Assembly (NCBI RefSeq): GCF_025354435.1
Contig: NZ_JANXMU010000024.1
Location: 2,949 to 66,948, forward strand
Direction of reading: 5' to 3'
Origin: Rhodoferax sp.
Lineage (GTDB): Bacteria; Pseudomonadota; Gammaproteobacteria; Burkholderiales; Burkholderiaceae_C
DNA: 64,000 nt
The first letter of the stretch is position 1. Each line of letters starts with the position of its first letter. Below are positions 50,543 to 64,000 of this stretch, in pieces. The notes beneath the pieces are model-generated. The model searched no databases. It was not told the DNA's origin and was given only the letters and a program-made list of their open reading frames with translations. The position numbers and the translations under genes are program-made.

Positions 50543-52264
50543 ATGCATTCTGATCCAGACTGGGCCAAAACCGCCCAGCAATTCCAGCAGACCTTGGGCG
50601 ACACATGGACACGGGCCTGGGCCGATGCCGTCAAGCCCATCCAGGGGCTGGATTTGGGCGTGCCAGTGGGTGGCATGGCCGCCGCACCCCAGATCAATTT
50701 TTCCGCCGCCAAGCTGCAGGCTTTGCAAAAGCAGTATCTGGAAGAATCTGCTGCGCTGTGGAACCAGAGCATGGATGCCGCCGCCATCGCCAAAGACAAG
50801 CGTTTTTCGGCCAAGGCCTGGGCTGAAAATCCCCTCACCGCGTACAACGCCGCCTCGTACCTGCTGACCAGCCGCACCCTGATGGGCCTGGCCGATGCCG
50901 TCGAGGCCGACGACAAAACCCGCGCCCGCATCCAGTTTGCGGTGGAGCAGTGGATGGCCGCGTCTGCGCCCAGCAACTATCTGGCGATGAACGCTGATGC
51001 GCAAAAGAAGCTCATCGACACCCAGGGCGAAAGCCTGGCCAAGGGCCTGAAAAACCTGATGCACGACATGCAGCAAGGCCATGTGTCCATGACCGACGAA
51101 AGCCTGTTCGAGGTGGGCCGCAATGTGGCCACCACCGAAGGCGCGGTGGTGTTTGAGAACGAGTTGTTCCAACTGATCGAATACAAGCCGCTCACGGCCA
51201 AGGTCTACGCCAAGCCGTTCTTGCTGGTGCCACCCTGCATCAACAAGTATTACATCCTTGATCTGCAGCCCGAAAATTCGCTGATCCGCTATGCGGTGGA
51301 ACAGGGCAACCGCACCTTTGTGGTCAGTTGGCGCAACCCCGACAAGTCCATGGGCGACAAGACCTGGGACAACTACATCGAAGACGCTGCTATTAAATCA
51401 ATAGCTGTCACCCAAGAGATTACGGGTGCCAAGACCATCAATGCCCTGGGATTTTGCGTGGGCGGCACTATCCTGAGCACGGCCGTGGCCGTGCTGGCGG
51501 CGCGCGGCGAAAAGCCGGTTTCCAGCCTGACCCTGCTGACCACGCTACTGGACTTCACCGACACCGGCATCATCGACATCTTTGTGGATGAGGCCATGGT
51601 GCAGTACCGCGAAAAGCAAATGGGCAAGGGCGGCCTGTTGCCCGGCGGCGATTTGTCTAGCACCTTCAGCTTCTTGCGCCCGAATGATTTGGTGTGGAAC
51701 TACGTGGTGGGCAACTACCTCAAGGGCGAAACCCCGCCGCCGTTTGACCTGTTGTACTGGAACAGCGACTCTACCAACCTGCCCGGCCCGTTTTATGCGT
51801 GGTATTTGCGCAATACCTATCTGGAAAACAAACTGGTGCAACCCGGCAAAGCTACCGTCTGCGGCGAAAAGATCGACCTGCGCAAGGTCGACATCCCTGC
51901 CTACATCTACGGATCGCGCGAAGACCACATCGTGCCGATTGGTGGTGCCTACGCGTCCACCCAGCACCTGCCTGGCAAGAAGCGCTTTGTGATGGGGGCC
52001 TCGGGCCACATCGCGGGGGTCATCAACCCCCCGGCCAAAAAGAAGCGCAGCCACTGGATCAGCGATGCCACCACCTTCCCGGCCAAAGCCGAGGACTGGA
52101 TTGCCGGTGCCCAGGAACATGCCGGTAGCTGGTGGACCGACTGGTCGGCCTGGCTCAAAGGCCATGCGGGCAAGCAAATTGCCGCGCCCACCGAGTACGG
52201 AAACGCCGATTACAAGGCGATTGAACCCGCGCCGGGCCGCTACGTAAAAGCCCGCGCACAGTAG
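50543..52264 (+). CDS. phaC: Class I poly(3-hydroxyalkanoate) synthase
   Basis: 573 aa. The lipase-box-like motif is GFCVGGT. ..NKYYILDL..RNPD.. GAGGA lies upstream of the ATG. Confidence 0.95.
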   Translation: MHSDPDWAKTAQQFQQTLGDTWTRAWADAVKPIQGLDLGVPVGGMAAAPQINFSAAKLQALQKQYLEESAALWNQSMDAAAIAKDKRFSAKAWAENPLTAYNAASYLLTSRTLMGLADAVEADDKTRARIQFAVEQWMAASAPSNYLAMNADAQKKLIDTQGESLAKGLKNLMHDMQQGHVSMTDESLFEVGRNVATTEGAVVFENELFQLIEYKPLTAKVYAKPFLLVPPCINKYYILDLQPENSLIRYAVEQGNRTFVVSWRNPDKSMGDKTWDNYIEDAAIKSIAVTQEITGAKTINALGFCVGGTILSTAVAVLAARGEKPVSSLTLLTTLLDFTDTGIIDIFVDEAMVQYREKQMGKGGLLPGGDLSSTFSFLRPNDLVWNYVVGNYLKGETPPPFDLLYWNSDSTNLPGPFYAWYLRNTYLENKLVQPGKATVCGEKIDLRKVDIPAYIYGSREDHIVPIGGAYASTQHLPGKKRFVMGASGHIAGVINPPAKKKRSHWISDATTFPAKAEDWIAGAQEHAGSWWTDWSAWLKGHAGKQIAAPTEYGNADYKAIEPAPGRYVKARAQ

Positions 52265-52394
52265 AAGTCCGTATACAAAAGTCAGGGTACATGGCTCTAC
52301 ACTGAAGCGCTAATTAACCGTTCTGTACACGGTGCGGAACGCACCGGATTACTTTCCCCCGACCCCATTACCAACTAGACCCAGGAGCAAAAAA

Positions 52395-53573
52395 ATGGAA
52401 GACATCGTCATCGTTGCAGCGGCCCGTACCGCCGTCGGTAAATTCGGCGGCAGCCTCGCCAAGACACCGGCCACCGAACTCGGTGCCCACGTCATCAAAG
52501 AAGTGCTGGCCCGTAGCGGCCTGAGCGCTGAGCAGATCGGTGAAGTCATCATGGGCCAGGTGTTGGCCGCAGGCGCGGGCCAAAACCCGGCCCGCCAGTC
52601 CGTCATCAAGGGTGGCCTGAGCCAAGGCACCCCCGGCCTGACCATCAACGCGGTCTGCGGCTCCGGCCTGAAAGCCGTGATGTTGGCCGCCCAGGCTGTG
52701 GCCTATGGCGACAGCGAAATCGTGATCGCCGGTGGCCAGGAAAACATGAGCGCTTCGCCCCACGTTTTGCTGGGCAGCCGCGACGGCCAGCGCATGGGTG
52801 ACTGGAAGATGACCGACACCATGATCGTGGACGGCCTGTGGGACGTGTACAACCAGTACCACATGGGCATCACCGCCGAAAACGTGGCCAAAAAATACGG
52901 CATTACCCGCGACATGCAAGACGCGTTGGCCCTGGCCAGCCAGCAAAAAGCCGCTGCCGCACAGGAAGCCGGTCGTTTTGTGGCGGAGATCGCCCCCTTC
53001 AGCATTGCCCAGCGTAAGGGCGACCCGATCATCTTCTCGGCCGATGAGTTCATCAACAAGAAGACCACCGCCGAAGCCTTGGCCGGTCTGCGTCCCGCGT
53101 TCGACAAAGCCGGTGGCGTAACCGCTGGCAATGCGTCCGGCCTGAACGACGGCGCTGCCGCCGTGATGGTGATGACCGCCAAAAAAGCCGCCGCCCTGGG
53201 CCTGACCCCGCTGGGCCGCATCGCCAGCTTTGCCACCACCGGTCTGGACCCCGCCATCATGGGCATGGGCCCCGTGCCTGCGTCCACCAAAGCCCTGGCC
53301 CGCGCGGGCTGGAAGGCGCAAGACCTGGACTTGTTGGAAATCAACGAAGCCTTCGCCGCCCAGGCCTGCGCCGTGAACAACGAAATGGGCTGGGACACCA
53401 GCAAGGTCAACGTCAACGGCGGCGCGATTGCCATCGGCCACCCTATCGGTGCGTCCGGCTGCCGTATTTTGGTCACGCTGCTGCACGAAATGCAGCGCCG
53501 CGATGCCAAGAAGGGCATTGCCTCGCTGTGCATCGGCGGCGGCATGGGTGTTGCCTTGACGATCGAACGCTGA
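52395..53573 (+). CDS. phaA: Acetyl-CoA acetyltransferase (beta-ketothiolase)
   Basis: ATG 52395 follows AGGAG. MEDIVIVAAARTAVGKFGGSL..NAVCGSGLKA..GGGMGVALTIER. Confidence 0.95.
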   Translation: MEDIVIVAAARTAVGKFGGSLAKTPATELGAHVIKEVLARSGLSAEQIGEVIMGQVLAAGAGQNPARQSVIKGGLSQGTPGLTINAVCGSGLKAVMLAAQAVAYGDSEIVIAGGQENMSASPHVLLGSRDGQRMGDWKMTDTMIVDGLWDVYNQYHMGITAENVAKKYGITRDMQDALALASQQKAAAAQEAGRFVAEIAPFSIAQRKGDPIIFSADEFINKKTTAEALAGLRPAFDKAGGVTAGNASGLNDGAAAVMVMTAKKAAALGLTPLGRIASFATTGLDPAIMGMGPVPASTKALARAGWKAQDLDLLEINEAFAAQACAVNNEMGWDTSKVNVNGGAIAIGHPIGASGCRILVTLLHEMQRRDAKKGIASLCIGGGMGVALTIER

Positions 53574-53611
53574 TTTATTGCGTATTTTTTAAAACAAACA
53601 GGAGATAAAAC

Positions 53612-54349
53612 ATGACTCAAAAAGTAGCGTACGTGACCGGCGGCATGGGTGGTATCGGGACCGCCATCTGCCAACGCTTGCATGCCGACGGTTTTAAGGT
53701 CATCGCCGGTTGCGGCCCTACCCGCGACCACGCCAAGTGGATCGCCGAGCAGGCCGCGCTGGGCTTTACCTTCTACGCCTCGGTGGGCAATGTCGGCGCG
53801 TGGGATTCCACCGTAGAAGCCTTCACCAAGACCAAGGCCGAACACGGCGTGATCGACGTGCTGGTGAACAACGCCGGTATCACCAAGGACCGCATGTTCC
53901 TGAAGATGAGCCGCGAAGACTGGGATTCGGTGATCGAAACCAACCTGAACAGCATGTTCAATGTCACCAAGCAAGTGGTGGCTGACATGGTGGAAAAGGG
54001 CTGGGGCCGCATCATCAACATCTCTTCGGTCAACGGTGAAAAAGGCCAGGCTGGCCAGACCAACTACTCGGCTGCCAAGGCCGGTATGCACGGTTTCTCG
54101 ATGGCCCTGGCGCAAGAGCTGGCCACCAAGGGCGTGACGGTCAACACCGTCAGCCCCGGCTACATCGGCACCGACATGGTCAATGCCATCCGTGAAGACG
54201 TGCTGGCCAAGATCGTCGCCACCGTGCCCGTCAAGCGCTTGGGCAAGCCCAGCGAAATCGCCTCCATCATCGCCTGGCTGGCGTCCGAAGAAGGTGGCTA
54301 CGCTACTGGCGCGGACTTCTCCGTCAACGGTGGCCTGCACATGGGCTGA
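53612..54349 (+). CDS. phaB: Acetoacetyl-CoA reductase (SDR)
   Basis: 245 aa. VAYVTGGMGGIGTAI..NNAGIT..YSAAKAG.. Confidence 0.95.
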   Translation: MTQKVAYVTGGMGGIGTAICQRLHADGFKVIAGCGPTRDHAKWIAEQAALGFTFYASVGNVGAWDSTVEAFTKTKAEHGVIDVLVNNAGITKDRMFLKMSREDWDSVIETNLNSMFNVTKQVVADMVEKGWGRIINISSVNGEKGQAGQTNYSAAKAGMHGFSMALAQELATKGVTVNTVSPGYIGTDMVNAIREDVLAKIVATVPVKRLGKPSEIASIIAWLASEEGGYATGADFSVNGGLHMG

Positions 54350-60366: not shown

Positions 60367-60442
60367 TCCTTCCCCCAAAAGAAGGATGCCCCCAAGGCCT
60401 GGGGTGCCCACAATGGAGGTCTTCCCTTTCGAGGAGACAAGC

Positions 60443-63370
60443 ATGGACTATCTTTTGGTGCGGGGCAGCCAAGGCCCTGCGGTGCAAAAACTGCGCACGG
60501 CATTGGCCAAAGAACTGGGCGCAGATGCCCAGGCCTTTCCGGGCCTGGACCAGGGCGACGAGATGGCGGTCGATGTAGAGGCCGCCGCCCGGCGCTGGCA
60601 GTCGGGTGTGGGCCTGGTGGCCGACGGGGTGGTGGGGCCGTACTGCCTGCAACTGCTGGATTTGCGCCCAGCCCCGAAGTTTGAAGTTCCCTTGACGCTG
60701 GAACTGGTGCGCCAGTTGTTCCCGGCCACCAAACCCGCCAACATCGCCCGCTACCTGCCCTACGTGGCTGCCGCGCTGGACGCGCTGGGGCTGACCGACT
60801 GGCCCATGGTCTGCGCCGCCCTGAGCAGCATCCGCGCCGAGACCGAAGGCTTTTTACCACTCTCTGAATTCCAGTCGCAATTCAACACCGCGCCAGGCGG
60901 CATGCCGTTTGGTTTGTACGAGCCGGGCACCGGGCCGGGCAAGCGCGTGGGCAATACCCAGCCGGGCGACGGTGCCCGTTTCAAGGGGCGCGGCTTTGTG
61001 CAACTGACCGGGCGCGACAACTACACCCGCTACGGCAAAGCGCTGGAGATCGATCTGGGCGTGGTGCAGGTTAACAATGCCGATCTGGCCAATGCCCCCG
61101 AGATTGCTGCGCTGCTGCTGGCCCGGTTTCTGGCCGACAAGGCCGAGCCTTTGCGTGCCGCACTGGCGGCGGGCAATCTGGCTGCAGCGCGCAAGCTGGT
61201 CAACGGCGGTAGCCATGGGCTGGACCGTTTCAAGGACGTGTTTGTGCGGGCGGGCAAGATTGCCGGGCCCGCGGCCAAAACCCCCACCGTGGGCGCGGGT
61301 GCCGCTGCCAAGGCCGCGCCTGTACGGTTGGGTGCCGAGCGCCAGCTCAAGGTGCGCAAAGACCCCATCGACCTGAAAGACCGGGCCTACCAGCCGCCCC
61401 CGCTGGGTCTGCAGGCTGCGTACCCCAGCGATGCCGACATTAAAAAATACCTGCCCGCCTATACCGCTGCCGACCTGATACTGGACCAGGGCAACGAAGG
61501 CGCTTGTACCGGCTACGGCCTGGCCTGCGTGGTCAACTACCTGCGCTGGTACAAGGCTGATGACAAAAATAAAATTGATCCTGTCAGCCCGCGCATGCTC
61601 TACAGCTACGCCCGCCGCTACGACGAATACGCGGGCGAAGACTACAGCGGCTCCAGCTGCCGGGGCGCGCTCAAGGGCTGGTTTAACCACGGTGTCTGCC
61701 TGGACGCGTACTGGCGCAAGAATGACCCGCAACCCCGTTACGGCTTCGCCAAGAATGCCACTGACCAGACCTTGGGCGTGTACTACCGCATCGCCCTGCA
61801 ATCCATCACCGACCTGCAGGCCGCCATCCAGGCCGTGGGCGCGGTGTATGTGTCGGCCCTGACCCACGACGGTTGGCACGACGTGCCCACCACCAAGGCG
61901 CTCCCCAGCGGGCACAAAGATATTCCGCTGATCGCCTTCGATGGCCGCCCGGCCGAAGGCGGTGGCCACGCCTTTGCGCTGGTGGGTTTCAACGCCCAGG
62001 GTTTCATCGTGCAGAACTCCTGGGGCACCCAGTTCGGCATGGGCGGCTTTGCCGTGCTGGGTTATGCCGACTGGCTGGCCAATGGCATGGACGCGTGGGT
62101 GGTGGCGCTGGGCGTGCCCGGCGTAGTAGAAGGGCGCATCAGCGTCACGGCTTCGGGCGGCGTGGACAGCGCGGGGCGGGCGGGTGCGGTCAACACCAGC
62201 CTGTGGTGGAGCGCCGACCAGGCCTACCAGCACAGTGTGGTGCTGGGAGACGATGGCCGCGTGAGCCATTACCTGACCGAAGACGCGCTCAGCCGCACCC
62301 TGGCTTACCAGGTTTGTGAGCTGCCCAACGCCTGGTTCCGCGATCCGGCCCACGGGCCGCTGGACGGCAAAAAACGCATCGTCATCTATGCCCACGGCGG
62401 CCTCAACAGCGAGGCCGATGCCATCAAGCGCGCCCGCGCGATGGGGCGGCATTTCGAGGCGAATGGCTGCTACCCGCTGTTCCTGGTCTGGAAGACCGGG
62501 CTGCTGGAATCCATCAACGGCATCTTGCACAAGCAAAGCCGCCAGGAGCCGGGGCTGGCGGGTGGCTGGTTCGACGAGCTGGCCGAGAATGTCACCGAGA
62601 AGACTGACCTGGCCATCGAGTCCACCATCGGCCGTGGCCTGGTGCGCCCGGTGTGGACCCAGATGAAGGATGTCGCCGAGCTGGCGTTTGAAACCCGGCG
62701 CGGCGGCGAGCAAATCATCCGTGCCCTGCAGCAGCTGATGGACACCTGGGGCGACCAGTTGGAAATCCATCTGGCCGGCCATTCCGCAGGTTCCATTTTG
62801 CTGGGTCACATGTTGGACGGTTTGGCCTACCGCCAAATGCCGATCGAGAAAATCAACTCCATCCACCTGTACGCACCCGCCTGCAGCGTGGCCTTTGCCA
62901 ACCAGTGCTACGCAAGCAACAAAAAAATCATGGAGCGGCTGTACATAGACATGCTGTCCGACACACGGGAGCGTGACGACAGCGTGGCGGGCATCTACCG
63001 CAAGTCGCTGCTGTACCTGGTGTCGGGTGCGCTGGAGACCGACCTGCGCACGCCGATCGCGGGCATGGCCAAGGTTTATGGCAGCGGCGATGGCGGCTGG
63101 GACGGCAGCTCCAGCACCAACGAGAGCCTGAACGTGTGGCGGCGCGCGGTGCAAGATGCCAAGCTCAAGAGCGCGGGGCGGTTGGTGGAAATCAGCGCCG
63201 ACAAAGTCTGCACCGCTCTGGCCGCCCCCCGCCGCGCCGACCCCAGCAATGTGATGATTGCCGCCGACCACGGCAGTTTCGACAACAACATCGACGTGAT
63301 CACCCGCACGCTGGAGGTGGTGCTGGGCGGCAAGCTGTTGCAGCCGGTAGACGACTTGCGGGGCTTTTAG
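60443..63370 (+). CDS. 975-aa four-module protein without a signal peptide: PG_binding_1 + GH19/COG3179 lysozyme-like + papain-family (C1) cysteine peptidase + GxSxG alpha/beta-hydrolase
   Basis: ATG 60443 lies 6 nt after GAGGAG. Motifs seen: GLVADGVVGPYCLQLL; SIRAETEGF and FKGRGFVQLTGRDNY; DQGNEGACTG, GGGHAFALVG and VQNSWG; IVIYAHGGLN and HLAGHSAGS. See the finding for coordinates. Confidence 0.85.
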   Translation: MDYLLVRGSQGPAVQKLRTALAKELGADAQAFPGLDQGDEMAVDVEAAARRWQSGVGLVADGVVGPYCLQLLDLRPAPKFEVPLTLELVRQLFPATKPANIARYLPYVAAALDALGLTDWPMVCAALSSIRAETEGFLPLSEFQSQFNTAPGGMPFGLYEPGTGPGKRVGNTQPGDGARFKGRGFVQLTGRDNYTRYGKALEIDLGVVQVNNADLANAPEIAALLLARFLADKAEPLRAALAAGNLAAARKLVNGGSHGLDRFKDVFVRAGKIAGPAAKTPTVGAGAAAKAAPVRLGAERQLKVRKDPIDLKDRAYQPPPLGLQAAYPSDADIKKYLPAYTAADLILDQGNEGACTGYGLACVVNYLRWYKADDKNKIDPVSPRMLYSYARRYDEYAGEDYSGSSCRGALKGWFNHGVCLDAYWRKNDPQPRYGFAKNATDQTLGVYYRIALQSITDLQAAIQAVGAVYVSALTHDGWHDVPTTKALPSGHKDIPLIAFDGRPAEGGGHAFALVGFNAQGFIVQNSWGTQFGMGGFAVLGYADWLANGMDAWVVALGVPGVVEGRISVTASGGVDSAGRAGAVNTSLWWSADQAYQHSVVLGDDGRVSHYLTEDALSRTLAYQVCELPNAWFRDPAHGPLDGKKRIVIYAHGGLNSEADAIKRARAMGRHFEANGCYPLFLVWKTGLLESINGILHKQSRQEPGLAGGWFDELAENVTEKTDLAIESTIGRGLVRPVWTQMKDVAELAFETRRGGEQIIRALQQLMDTWGDQLEIHLAGHSAGSILLGHMLDGLAYRQMPIEKINSIHLYAPACSVAFANQCYASNKKIMERLYIDMLSDTRERDDSVAGIYRKSLLYLVSGALETDLRTPIAGMAKVYGSGDGGWDGSSSTNESLNVWRRAVQDAKLKSAGRLVEISADKVCTALAAPRRADPSNVMIAADHGSFDNNIDVITRTLEVVLGGKLLQPVDDLRGF

Positions 63371-63389
63371 CGGCGCAGAGTGGGGCGTG

Positions 63390-63416
63390 GTGCCAAAGCT
63401 TGTACAGTTTTGGCAC
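63390..63416 (+). terminator. Hairpin terminator after the four-module gene
   Basis: GTGCCAAA-gcttgtacagt-TTTGGCAC starts 20 nt after the stop and is followed by ttcagcgtttt, a weak U-tract. Confidence 0.5.
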
Positions 63417-63436
63417 TTCAGCGTTTTAGGCTTTCC

Positions 63437-64000
63437 ATGTCCACACCATTGCTCCAAGCCAACGGGCGCGCGTTTGCGCACATTGCCCAGTTCCACCCCG
63501 AGTTGACGGCCTTGCGCCGCGATCTGCATGCCCACCCCGAGCTGGGCTATGAAGAGTTTTATACGGCTGAGCGCGTAACCCAGGCGCTCAAACTCTGCGG
63601 CGTGGACGAGGTGCATACCGGCATTGGCAAAACCGGCGTGGTCGGTGTCATCCACGGGCGCAACCACCATAGCGGACACACCAGCGGCAAGATGGTTGGC
63701 CTGCGCGCCGATATGGACGCGCTGCCCATGACTGAGCAAAACGATTTCGCCTGGAAGTCGGCCAAGGGTGGCCTGATGCACGGCTGTGGCCACGATGGCC
63801 ATACCGCCATGCTGGTTGGTGCAGCCCGCTACCTGGCCGAGACGCGCAACTTCGACGGCACGGTGGCGCTGATCTTCCAACCCGGTGAAGAGGGCTATGC
63901 GGGGGCCAAGGCCATGATCGACGACGGCCTGTTCGAGCGCTTCCCGGTGCAGGCCGTGTTTGGCATGCACAACTGGCCGCACATGCGGCCCGGCATCATC
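63437..64000 (+). CDS. M20 family amidohydrolase (hippurate hydrolase / N-acyl-amino-acid amidohydrolase-like), N-terminal 188 codons, truncated by the window end
   Basis: My own translation from ATG 63437 gives MSTPLLQANGRAFAHIAQFHPELTALRRDLHAHPELGYEEFYTAERV..LRADMDALPM..MHGCGHDGHTAMLVGAA..IFQPGEEG. Confidence 0.85.
   Translation, partial: MSTPLLQANGRAFAHIAQFHPELTALRRDLHAHPELGYEEFYTAERVTQALKLCGVDEVHTGIGKTGVVGVIHGRNHHSGHTSGKMVGLRADMDALPMTEQNDFAWKSAKGGLMHGCGHDGHTAMLVGAARYLAETRNFDGTVALIFQPGEEGYAGAKAMIDDGLFERFPVQAVFGMHNWPHMRPGII

Follow-up and report, generated by a model that had tools for sequence, protein, structure and literature searches.

A gene in a 64,000-nucleotide stretch of Rhodoferax sp. 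DNA (hereafter the window; positions 2,949 to 66,948 of contig NZ_JANXMU010000024.1, assembly GCF_025354435.1) encodes a protein of 975 residues in which a peptidoglycan (PG)-binding domain, a GH19-type lysin, a papain-like C1 cysteine peptidase and an alpha/beta hydrolase follow one another on a polypeptide that carries no export signal. The coding sequence occupies window positions 60443..63370 on the plus strand and ends in a TAG stop codon (63368-63370). We found that the last two modules make up a widespread core that usually stands alone, and that exchangeable lytic heads precede this core in some relatives, the window protein among them. Each module comes from a known family; what is new is the core family and the swapping of lytic heads. 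We favor, at a probability of about 0.35, the reading that the protein serves as a self-contained, latent effector of lysis (cell death), acting from inside the cell.

Four modules on one polypeptide

The N-terminal part reads as a modular lysin. Residues 2-73 (60446..60661, plus strand) are predicted to form a PG_binding_1 module on the evidence of Pfam, of profile comparison with the PDB and of an AlphaFold model. The Pfam match in the window protein itself (PF01471, residues 11-72) is below threshold, at E 0.05 and 14.2 bits against a cut-off of 23. Several homologues pass the PF01471 threshold in precomputed matches, and a profile of 27 homologues matches the PG-binding domains of 1lbu (E 0.0027) and of L,D-transpeptidases, suggesting that the module belongs with the three-helix murein-binding domains. 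It is modelled with a predicted local distance difference test score (pLDDT) of 82-91, and its motif, RRWQ..G..DG..G, is invariant.

A GH19-type, or phage ‘chitinase-like’, module follows at residues ~80-275 (60680..61267, plus strand). Residues 81-282 match the PHROG endolysin family phrog_181 at 1.7e-28, and the PDB matches include the SPN1S endolysin (4ok7, 1.6e-14), 9ms6 and 8p8e, with weaker matches to plant and bacterial GH19 chitinases (1e-4 to 1e-2). E133 (60839-60841) and E142 (60866-60868), both invariant, align with the two glutamates of HESGGFTRLQE in 4ok7. These matches point to membership of the GH19 family, with muramidase as the predicted specificity. An earlier annotation of this DNA, made from the sequence alone (the original prediction), had called the GH19 module, and phrog_181 and 4ok7 bear it out, but the second invariant catalytic glutamate, E142, had been missed. 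An Ala/Pro-rich linker of variable length (residues ~276-300; 61268..61342, plus strand), modelled at pLDDT <50 and carrying insertions of up to ~50 aa in homologues, separates the lysin from the peptidase.

Residues ~301-556 (61343..62110, plus strand) form the C1 cysteine peptidase, with Q349, C355 (61505-61507), H509 (61967-61969) and N525 (62015-62017) as catalytic residues. The full-length AlphaFold model was poor over this domain (pLDDT 62.6), and the fold search used a second model, computed for the core only from a more diverse alignment, which was usable at pLDDT 78.9. The domain matches xylellain (3ois) both in sequence (1.3e-13) and in fold (Foldseek 1.4e-11, TM 0.65), the Foldseek runners-up being papain (1e-6), cathepsins and Lpg2622. 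Alignment to papain with hhalign, which covered the His/Asn/Trp block only, placed H509, N525 and W527 on H159, N175 and W177 at 94% probability, and the spacing Q349-x5-C355 is identical to that of Q19 and C25 in papain. The C1 catalytic residues are invariant in both of our alignments, A1 and A2. Fold and Gln-Cys-His-Asn positions together place the module in peptidase family C1 (papain). The signal peptide and inhibitory pro-domain of the secreted C1A type are both absent: relatives that consist of the core only begin ~10 aa ahead of the catalytic domain, leaving room for neither. A variable linker rich in Gly, Ala and Ser, with low pLDDT (residues ~557-587; 62111..62203, plus strand), leads to the last module.

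The C-terminal module, residues ~588-975 (62204..63367, plus strand), is a predicted alpha/beta hydrolase of DUF900/lipase type, with HGG at residues 651-653, S781 at 62783-62785, E843 or D846 as acid and H943 at 63269-63271. The elements H651-G-G, G779-H-S781-A-G783, E843/D846 and H943 are all invariant. In the model they occur in the canonical order (strand-HGG, strand-GHSAG, strand-acid loop, strand-His), and a helical insertion at ~687-772 would form a lid; the superfamily assignment follows from these motifs and from the modelled strand order. The acid, which had gone unnamed in the original prediction, is probably D846 or E843. DUF900 (PF05990) scores 15.3 bits in the window protein against a cut-off of 20.5 (E 0.014), and 8 of 24 core relatives match it, the best at 9.2e-7. 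Lipases account for 9 of 11 weak PDB profile matches, and other weak PDB relatives are cutinases and esterases. The protein ends in DDLRGF (63350-63367, residues 970-975), which is invariant in the full-length family, and a related DL(x)GF/Y is common at the C-terminus of the core-only family. A type I secretion signal is an unlikely identity for this tail, which is modelled inside the hydrolase domain (pLDDT ~75-93) of a protein with no RTX repeats; it may have a structural or autoinhibitory role or serve as a recognition tag.

Conservation was assessed in an alignment of 27 sequences of 59-91% identity, in which every proposed catalytic residue is invariant. The original prediction had described these residues as intact, had given codon positions for E133, C355, H509, N525, S781 and H943 that are all correct, and had called for profile and structure searches. 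Those searches recovered all modules independently, among them the GH19, C1 and esterase/lipase-type alpha/beta hydrolase domains that it had named.

The peptidase and hydrolase form a widespread core with exchangeable heads

A HMMER scan of 1.84 billion representative proteins returned 11,028 matches, 728 of them below 1e-30. Most of the strong matches are 650-750 aa long (about 690 aa) and align, from their own residue ~10, to query residues ~300-975. As judged by these alignments, the C1 peptidase and the hydrolase (residues ~300-975) are a conserved two-domain core that usually occurs alone. When the best 150 representatives are sorted by layout, 96 consist of the complete core and nothing else, and 28 are extended at the N-terminus by 80 aa or more; profile search identified 4,741 core-type proteins among 8,000 scored candidates. 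These core-type proteins are spread over Nitrospirota, Geobacter, Desulfocapsa, Thiobacillus, Gammaproteobacteria and other groups, and the only names given to them, if any, are ‘C1 family peptidase’ and ‘hypothetical protein’. The window protein had been taken for a one-off chimera of five segments, a view that these relatives overturn.

The heads that precede the core vary. They comprise GH19 with or without PG_binding_1, Phage_lysozyme, the PF11860 muramidase and Amidase_2, and in one sister architecture the head is a Tlde1 L,D-peptidase domain. Another head is a phosphoesterase of phospholipase C (PLC)/AcpA type that begins at profile position 1, with no Tat or Sec leader. Yet another combines DUF7362 with DUF7379, whose motifs, HGTFS...YSRGA, make it read as a second lipase-like hydrolase. 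PDB searches with the unassigned N-terminal modules of two further proteins, P0243 and P0220, gave no identification. Every identifiable head acts on murein or lipid, and no nuclease, NADase or similar cytosolic toxin occurs among the identified heads. Such a restriction to envelope-degrading heads speaks for a core that acts in concert with envelope destruction and against a generic delivery handle. A widespread core with interchangeable heads also favors the executioner and effector readings over envelope remodelling.

On the Rhizobium etli plasmid pRetIE4771b the fusion is split into separate genes (locus L173, 3183-8747). The order there is a protein with four transmembrane (TM) segments, a signal-less Amidase_2/PG_binding_1/lysozyme-like protein, the C1-hydrolase core and a secreted DUF1353 protein, a set that may be a dedicated lysis or export cassette.

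Full-length copies of the four-module architecture make up >120 protein clusters (57-90% identity) and occur in no fewer than 80 GTDB species. Carriers in the Burkholderiales, Comamonadaceae among them, include Rhodoferax/Albidiferax, Polaromonas, Variovorax, Rhizobacter, Aquabacterium, Methylibium, Rubrivivax and Ideonella; carriers elsewhere include Rhodocyclaceae, Xanthomonadales (Dyella, Luteibacter, Rhodanobacter, Dokdonella), some Pseudomonas and a Cellvibrio. Distribution is patchy, with relatives in no more than 512 of 185,579 species genomes. The metagenome-assembled genome Rhodoferax HK-STAS-PROT-90 holds two full-length copies on separate contigs (L037, L038).

The protein is made without an export signal

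The open reading frame (ORF) runs on the plus strand from 60386 or 60443 to 63370, and translation from the ATG at 60443 gives the 975 residues described above. A Shine-Dalgarno-like GAGGAG (60431..60436, plus strand), read from the sequence, lies 6 nt 5' of this start codon, and GGAG or GGGAG occupies the equivalent position in nearly all homologous loci. All but one of 26 aligned homologues start at the equivalent residue (M-x-x-L-L-V-R-G), and the start of the single exception appears to have been miscalled. Of 80 related loci, 67 have an in-frame stop 15-177 nt 5' of the gene; for the closest complete genome the distance is 42 nt, with no intervening Met. The upstream ATGs at 60386 and 60413 fall within a conserved, non-coding, promoter-like motif. 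Homologue starts and in-frame stops thus exclude an upstream start with a signal peptide.

The protein itself has no TM helix, signal peptide or lipobox, its maximum Kyte-Doolittle score over 19 residues being 1.34. Homologue starts, upstream stops and low hydrophobicity together sustain the earlier claim that signal peptide, lipobox and TM segment are all missing. The absence extends across the family, as full-length proteins begin directly with the PG-binding fold. The product is made in the cytoplasm, with no Sec, Tat or lipoprotein signal and no TM segment.

A solitary cellular gene

We clustered the ORFs that flank 85 full-length and 84 core-only loci (169 in all) to look for conserved partners. 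The commonest neighbor family, generic response regulators, occurs in at most 17 of the 85 full-length loci, and synteny is confined to clades; around the core alone, no neighbor family is found in more than 7 of the 84 loci. The annotated neighborhoods of eight genomes hold mainly housekeeping genes. Holin, immunity, type VI secretion system (T6SS) and phage genes are not conserved beside the gene in any of the 169 loci. For the window itself, the earlier statement that no holin, immunity, VgrG, PAAR, Rhs or phage genes lie nearby is confirmed by the syntenic annotated locus L001. Gene order in the window is shared with Rhodoferax sp. WC2427, running from polyhydroxyalkanoate (PHA) genes through LysR, pirin, a GntR-aminotransferase and two cytochromes c to the gene itself and then an M20 peptidase.

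The C1-hydrolase core had no match in 50,697 GenBank phage records and was found on 2 of 2.9 million IMG/VR contigs. It is carried by 27 plasmids, mostly rhizobial megaplasmids. GC and third-position GC (GC3) of the gene equal those of neighboring genes. PADLOC 2.0 defense models did not match the protein and gave one chance-level match among 24 relatives, and a known anti-phage defense system was rejected on this result. The lack of partner linkage, the near-absence from phage collections and the negative PADLOC result together identify a solitary cellular gene. The window gene is chromosomal, syntenic within its clade and cellular, not viral, and the core at large is an old, widespread, solitary cellular gene.

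Some loci have neighbors of their own. In one clade, a conserved ORF of 204 aa lies 66 nt downstream on the same strand (L004 12964-13578; also L022, L031, L032, L035, L037-L039, L043, L045 and L051). It has no signal peptide, TM segment or Pfam match and could be a clade-specific partner or inhibitor. As the sole candidate for a conserved immunity-like ORF it was rejected, being confined to that clade and lacking both signal peptide and TM segment. At L089 (4067-13893), the Tlde1-C1-hydrolase variant is flanked by a TPR-CHAT protease, by four small ORFs and by a Trypco1(Pepco)+Trypsin_2 pair; Rhs genes are close by, and the region looks like a conflict or defense island. A Rhizobium leguminosarum relative adjoins caspase and trypsin genes, and caspase-like ORFs lie beside relatives in three metagenome loci.

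A conserved motif, probably a control region, precedes the full-length gene

The upstream ATGs at 60386 and 60413 are overlapped by a bipartite DNA motif, RGGATG-N20/21-CACAMT (60383..60414, plus strand; AGGATG-N20-CACAAT in the window). The motif precedes the ATG by 27-46 nt in at least 21 of 80 full-length loci under the strict pattern and in 31 under the loose one, these loci coming from different genera and neighborhoods, and 21 of the 29 strict matches in 1.48 Mb (both strands) are at the gene. Further sites include L001 9942-9973, L013 7928-7959, L017 7931-7963 and L077 7936-7967. In some lineages the second box lies inside the palindrome GCGCAcacTGCGC, and two core-only paralogues do not have the motif. 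Its specificity for the full-length gene across genera suggests that the gene has its own conserved control region. By its pattern the motif is probably a promoter or operator: the second box looks like a -10 element, and the first, too distant for a normal -35, may be an activator or operator site. Rfam found no family above chance in the upstream region, and a riboswitch or leader RNA was rejected on that account.

Proposed lysis from within and its alternatives

Taken together, the module content and the position of the protein suggest that the modules co-operate on the cell envelope. The lipase-like domain alone has its presumed substrate, the inner leaflet of the cytoplasmic membrane, within reach of the place where the protein is made, and the proposed action would accordingly start on the cytosolic side. 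There the domain would hydrolyze phospholipids of the cytoplasmic membrane, doing the job that a holin does in phage. The breach would let the PG-binding/GH19 module reach the glycan strands and the C1 peptidase reach peptide stems or wall-tethered envelope proteins. Alternatively or additionally, the peptidase could license the hydrolase by cleavage around the variable lid region. The trigger could be phage infection, stress or a regulator that acts on the conserved upstream motif. A more specific version, which we put forward only tentatively, is that the core is a new and widespread class of single-gene death or lysis effector and the window protein a holin-independent, one-polypeptide lysis machine, its protease possibly licensing its lipase and a dedicated regulator at the upstream motif switching it on.

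Several observations support lysis from within. The module anatomy, the family-wide lack of an export signal, the lack of partner genes and the restriction of the heads to attack on murein or lipid all count for it. We count the DUF900 link to cinquedea homologues in favor of a lipase-like, membrane-directed hydrolase: cinquedea is a secreted bactericidal phospholipase A of Haloferax, and 69% of its archaeal homologues carry DUF900 (bioRxiv 10.64898/2026.06.10.730825). The likeness runs through the shared Pfam family only, DUF900 being the best Pfam family of both lipase-like hydrolases, and cinquedea is secreted and single-domain where the window protein is signal-less and multidomain. The signal-less PLC-type and second-lipase variants count for lipid-directed action from the cytosol. 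Phage lysin-like proteins with C1 domains exist (BFVD matches), making a wall-directed role of the C1 domain plausible. The occasional conflict-type neighbors of some relatives (CHAT, caspase, trypsin, Trypco1/Pepco) speak for a death effector, and the split Rhizobium etli version speaks for lysis.

A further parallel comes from protease-activated alpha/beta-hydrolase zymogens that are cytoplasmic death effectors (bioRxiv 10.1101/2025.11.14.688446). In LcHydrolase/LcCaspase, as in the window architecture, a cysteine protease is linked to a lid-bearing, lipase-like hydrolase; the LcHydrolase product is cytoplasmic and lethal once licensed, as is proposed for the window protein. However, LcCaspase is caspase-like, separately encoded and fused to sensors, whereas the window protease is of the C1 type, fused in cis and sensorless. 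The gating parallel is an analogy only. Membership of the LcHydrolase family was rejected, as the hhalign probability is 5% over 28 columns round the nucleophile and no sensor-fused caspase or trypsin neighbor occurs in the window clade.

Other observations weigh against lysis from within. The lipid substrate is inferred from a weak family resemblance, with DUF900 below the Pfam cut-off in this protein, and only the nucleophile elbow is common to the hydrolase and LcHydrolase. The gene lies in no recognizable defense island and matches no PADLOC model, and the Pfam scan shows the four modules only, with no sensor domain among them. Identity of 57% between Beta- and Gammaproteobacteria over 975 aa, together with clade synteny, is unusual for suicide or defense genes. 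Finally, immunity against an external lysin is superfluous in a Gram-negative producer, which makes the missing immunity gene compatible with an extracellular role. Computation alone does not separate the exported effector, executioner and remodelling options.

That extracellular role is a serious alternative, in our view only slightly less probable than lysis from within. The protein would be an antibacterial (or anti-Gram-positive or antifungal) weapon that leaves the cell by a non-classical route, possibly T6SS, lysis of a subpopulation or vesicles, and degrades the wall, wall-linked proteins and membrane of its target. Tlde1, amidase, lysozyme and lipase heads are of kinds that T6SS and other interbacterial effectors also carry, Rhs genes are found near one Tlde1 fusion, and a DUF900-type enzyme kills bacteria from outside. 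Like the window protein, TseP and Tlde1 T6SS effectors unite several envelope-degrading activities on one polypeptide without a signal peptide, which T6SS cargo does not need; TseP, a chimeric amidase-lysozyme (PMC11893102), shows that such chimeric T6SS effectors are known. In contrast to these effectors, the window family shows no linkage to vgrG, hcp or PAAR genes, to an adaptor or to an immunity gene in the 85 full-length and 84 core-only loci, and Pfam finds no MIX-, PAAR- or Rhs-type N-terminus. The Pfam scan likewise returned no XVIPCD or other known trafficking domain. With Pfam-A, which presumably holds an XVIPCD model, scanned to E 1 and only the four modules returned, an effector of the Xanthomonadales-type type IV secretion system (X-Tfe) was rejected. 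The arrangement, with a variable toxin at the N-terminus and two enzymes as the constant part, is unlike that of known polymorphic toxins, and the C-terminus is modelled as part of a folded hydrolase and not as a free secretion signal. The core also occurs in phyla such as Nitrospirota, in which, to our knowledge, T6SSs are not expected to be common.

We regard a housekeeping function in envelope turnover or remodelling, for example the cytoplasmic processing of imported muropeptides, lipoprotein fragments or lipids, as improbable. The gene does lie among housekeeping genes, is syntenic within its clade, matches its host in GC and GC3 and is under strong purifying selection in all modules. Murein recycling, moreover, includes cytoplasmic Amidase_2 (AmpD) and LD-carboxypeptidase activities. 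But the cytoplasm contains no polymeric glycan, the substrate that a GH19 muramidase with a PG-binding domain requires, and the PLC-type and second-lipase variants do not fit recycling. The patchy distribution also tells against such a function, as does the lack of ampG, nagZ or mpl-type linkage in the annotated loci.

An origin as a prophage lysis gene, remnant or active, in which an endolysin has gained extra domains, is effectively refuted despite the strong match of the N-terminal 290 aa to phage endolysins and the C1 domains of phage lysin-like proteins, because the core is nearly absent from the phage collections, no phage gene or holin occurs around the window gene or in any sampled locus, and its composition is that of the host.

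Relation to known systems

We found no description of the C1/lipase-like core, of its solitary, signal-less cellular nature or of head swapping in NCBIfam, PADLOC, the PDB or the literature searched, which agrees with the earlier remark that no protein of this architecture had been characterized. Its parts nonetheless have close counterparts. Modular endolysins of Gram-negative phages, among them the OBP gp279-type lysins, offer the nearest likeness to residues 1-290, which share with SPN1S (4ok7) the two-module layout, both GH19 glutamates and the lack of a signal peptide. In contrast to these endolysins, the window gene is not of phage, has no holin and encodes ~680 extra residues with two more enzymes.

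The division of labor recalls the mycobacteriophage proteins LysA and LysB, which dismantle a multilayered envelope with a peptidase, a wall-binding domain, a glycosidase that is often GH19 and an esterase of the alpha/beta-hydrolase type. The logic is the same as that proposed for the window protein, and the weak cutinase matches of the hydrolase suggest a LysB-like fold, a likeness at the level of fold class. LysA and LysB are, however, two phage proteins that rely on a holin or chaperone, while the window host is Gram-negative and has no mycolates. Among bacterial C1A peptidases such as Lpg2622, xylellain (3ois) is the best match of residues 301-556 and has the same Gln-Cys-His-Asn set, at ~22% identity; the window C1 domain differs in having no pro-region and in being embedded between two enzymes. 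Lysozyme effectors and papain-like murein peptidase effectors have been noted in conflict systems (PMC7159879), a further precedent for cytoplasmic death effectors.

If lysis from within is correct, bacteria keep a chromosomal, phage- and holin-independent means of dismantling all layers of the envelope with one protein, which would bear on programmed cell death, on abortive infection and on the release of DNA, vesicles and public goods. Under any of the readings, the analysis defines a large family, with thousands of sequences in Proteobacteria, Nitrospirota and Desulfobacterota. Clear catalytic residues, swappable lytic modules and the lack of a known partner make this family directly testable with three point mutants. 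The modules could also be parts for enzybiotics, combining a lysin with a possible membrane-active lipase.

Other features of the locus

A hairpin (63381..63428, plus strand) lies between the gene and the M20 peptidase (ATG 63438). The original prediction had assigned the gene a hairpin terminator of its own; the hairpin stands, being stable at -25.6 kcal/mol (z -2.28), but the scan for canonical intrinsic terminators did not pick it up. A role in termination or attenuation is possible.

The minus-strand ORF of 1042 aa (window 60854-63982) that spans the entire gene is a shadow ORF, as is usual opposite coding regions of high GC (here GC3 0.82), and no gene. The PHA cluster (phaC, thiolase and reductase) occupies window positions 50543-54349; it is syntenic with that of Rhodoferax sp. 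WC2427 and unrelated to the lysin gene.

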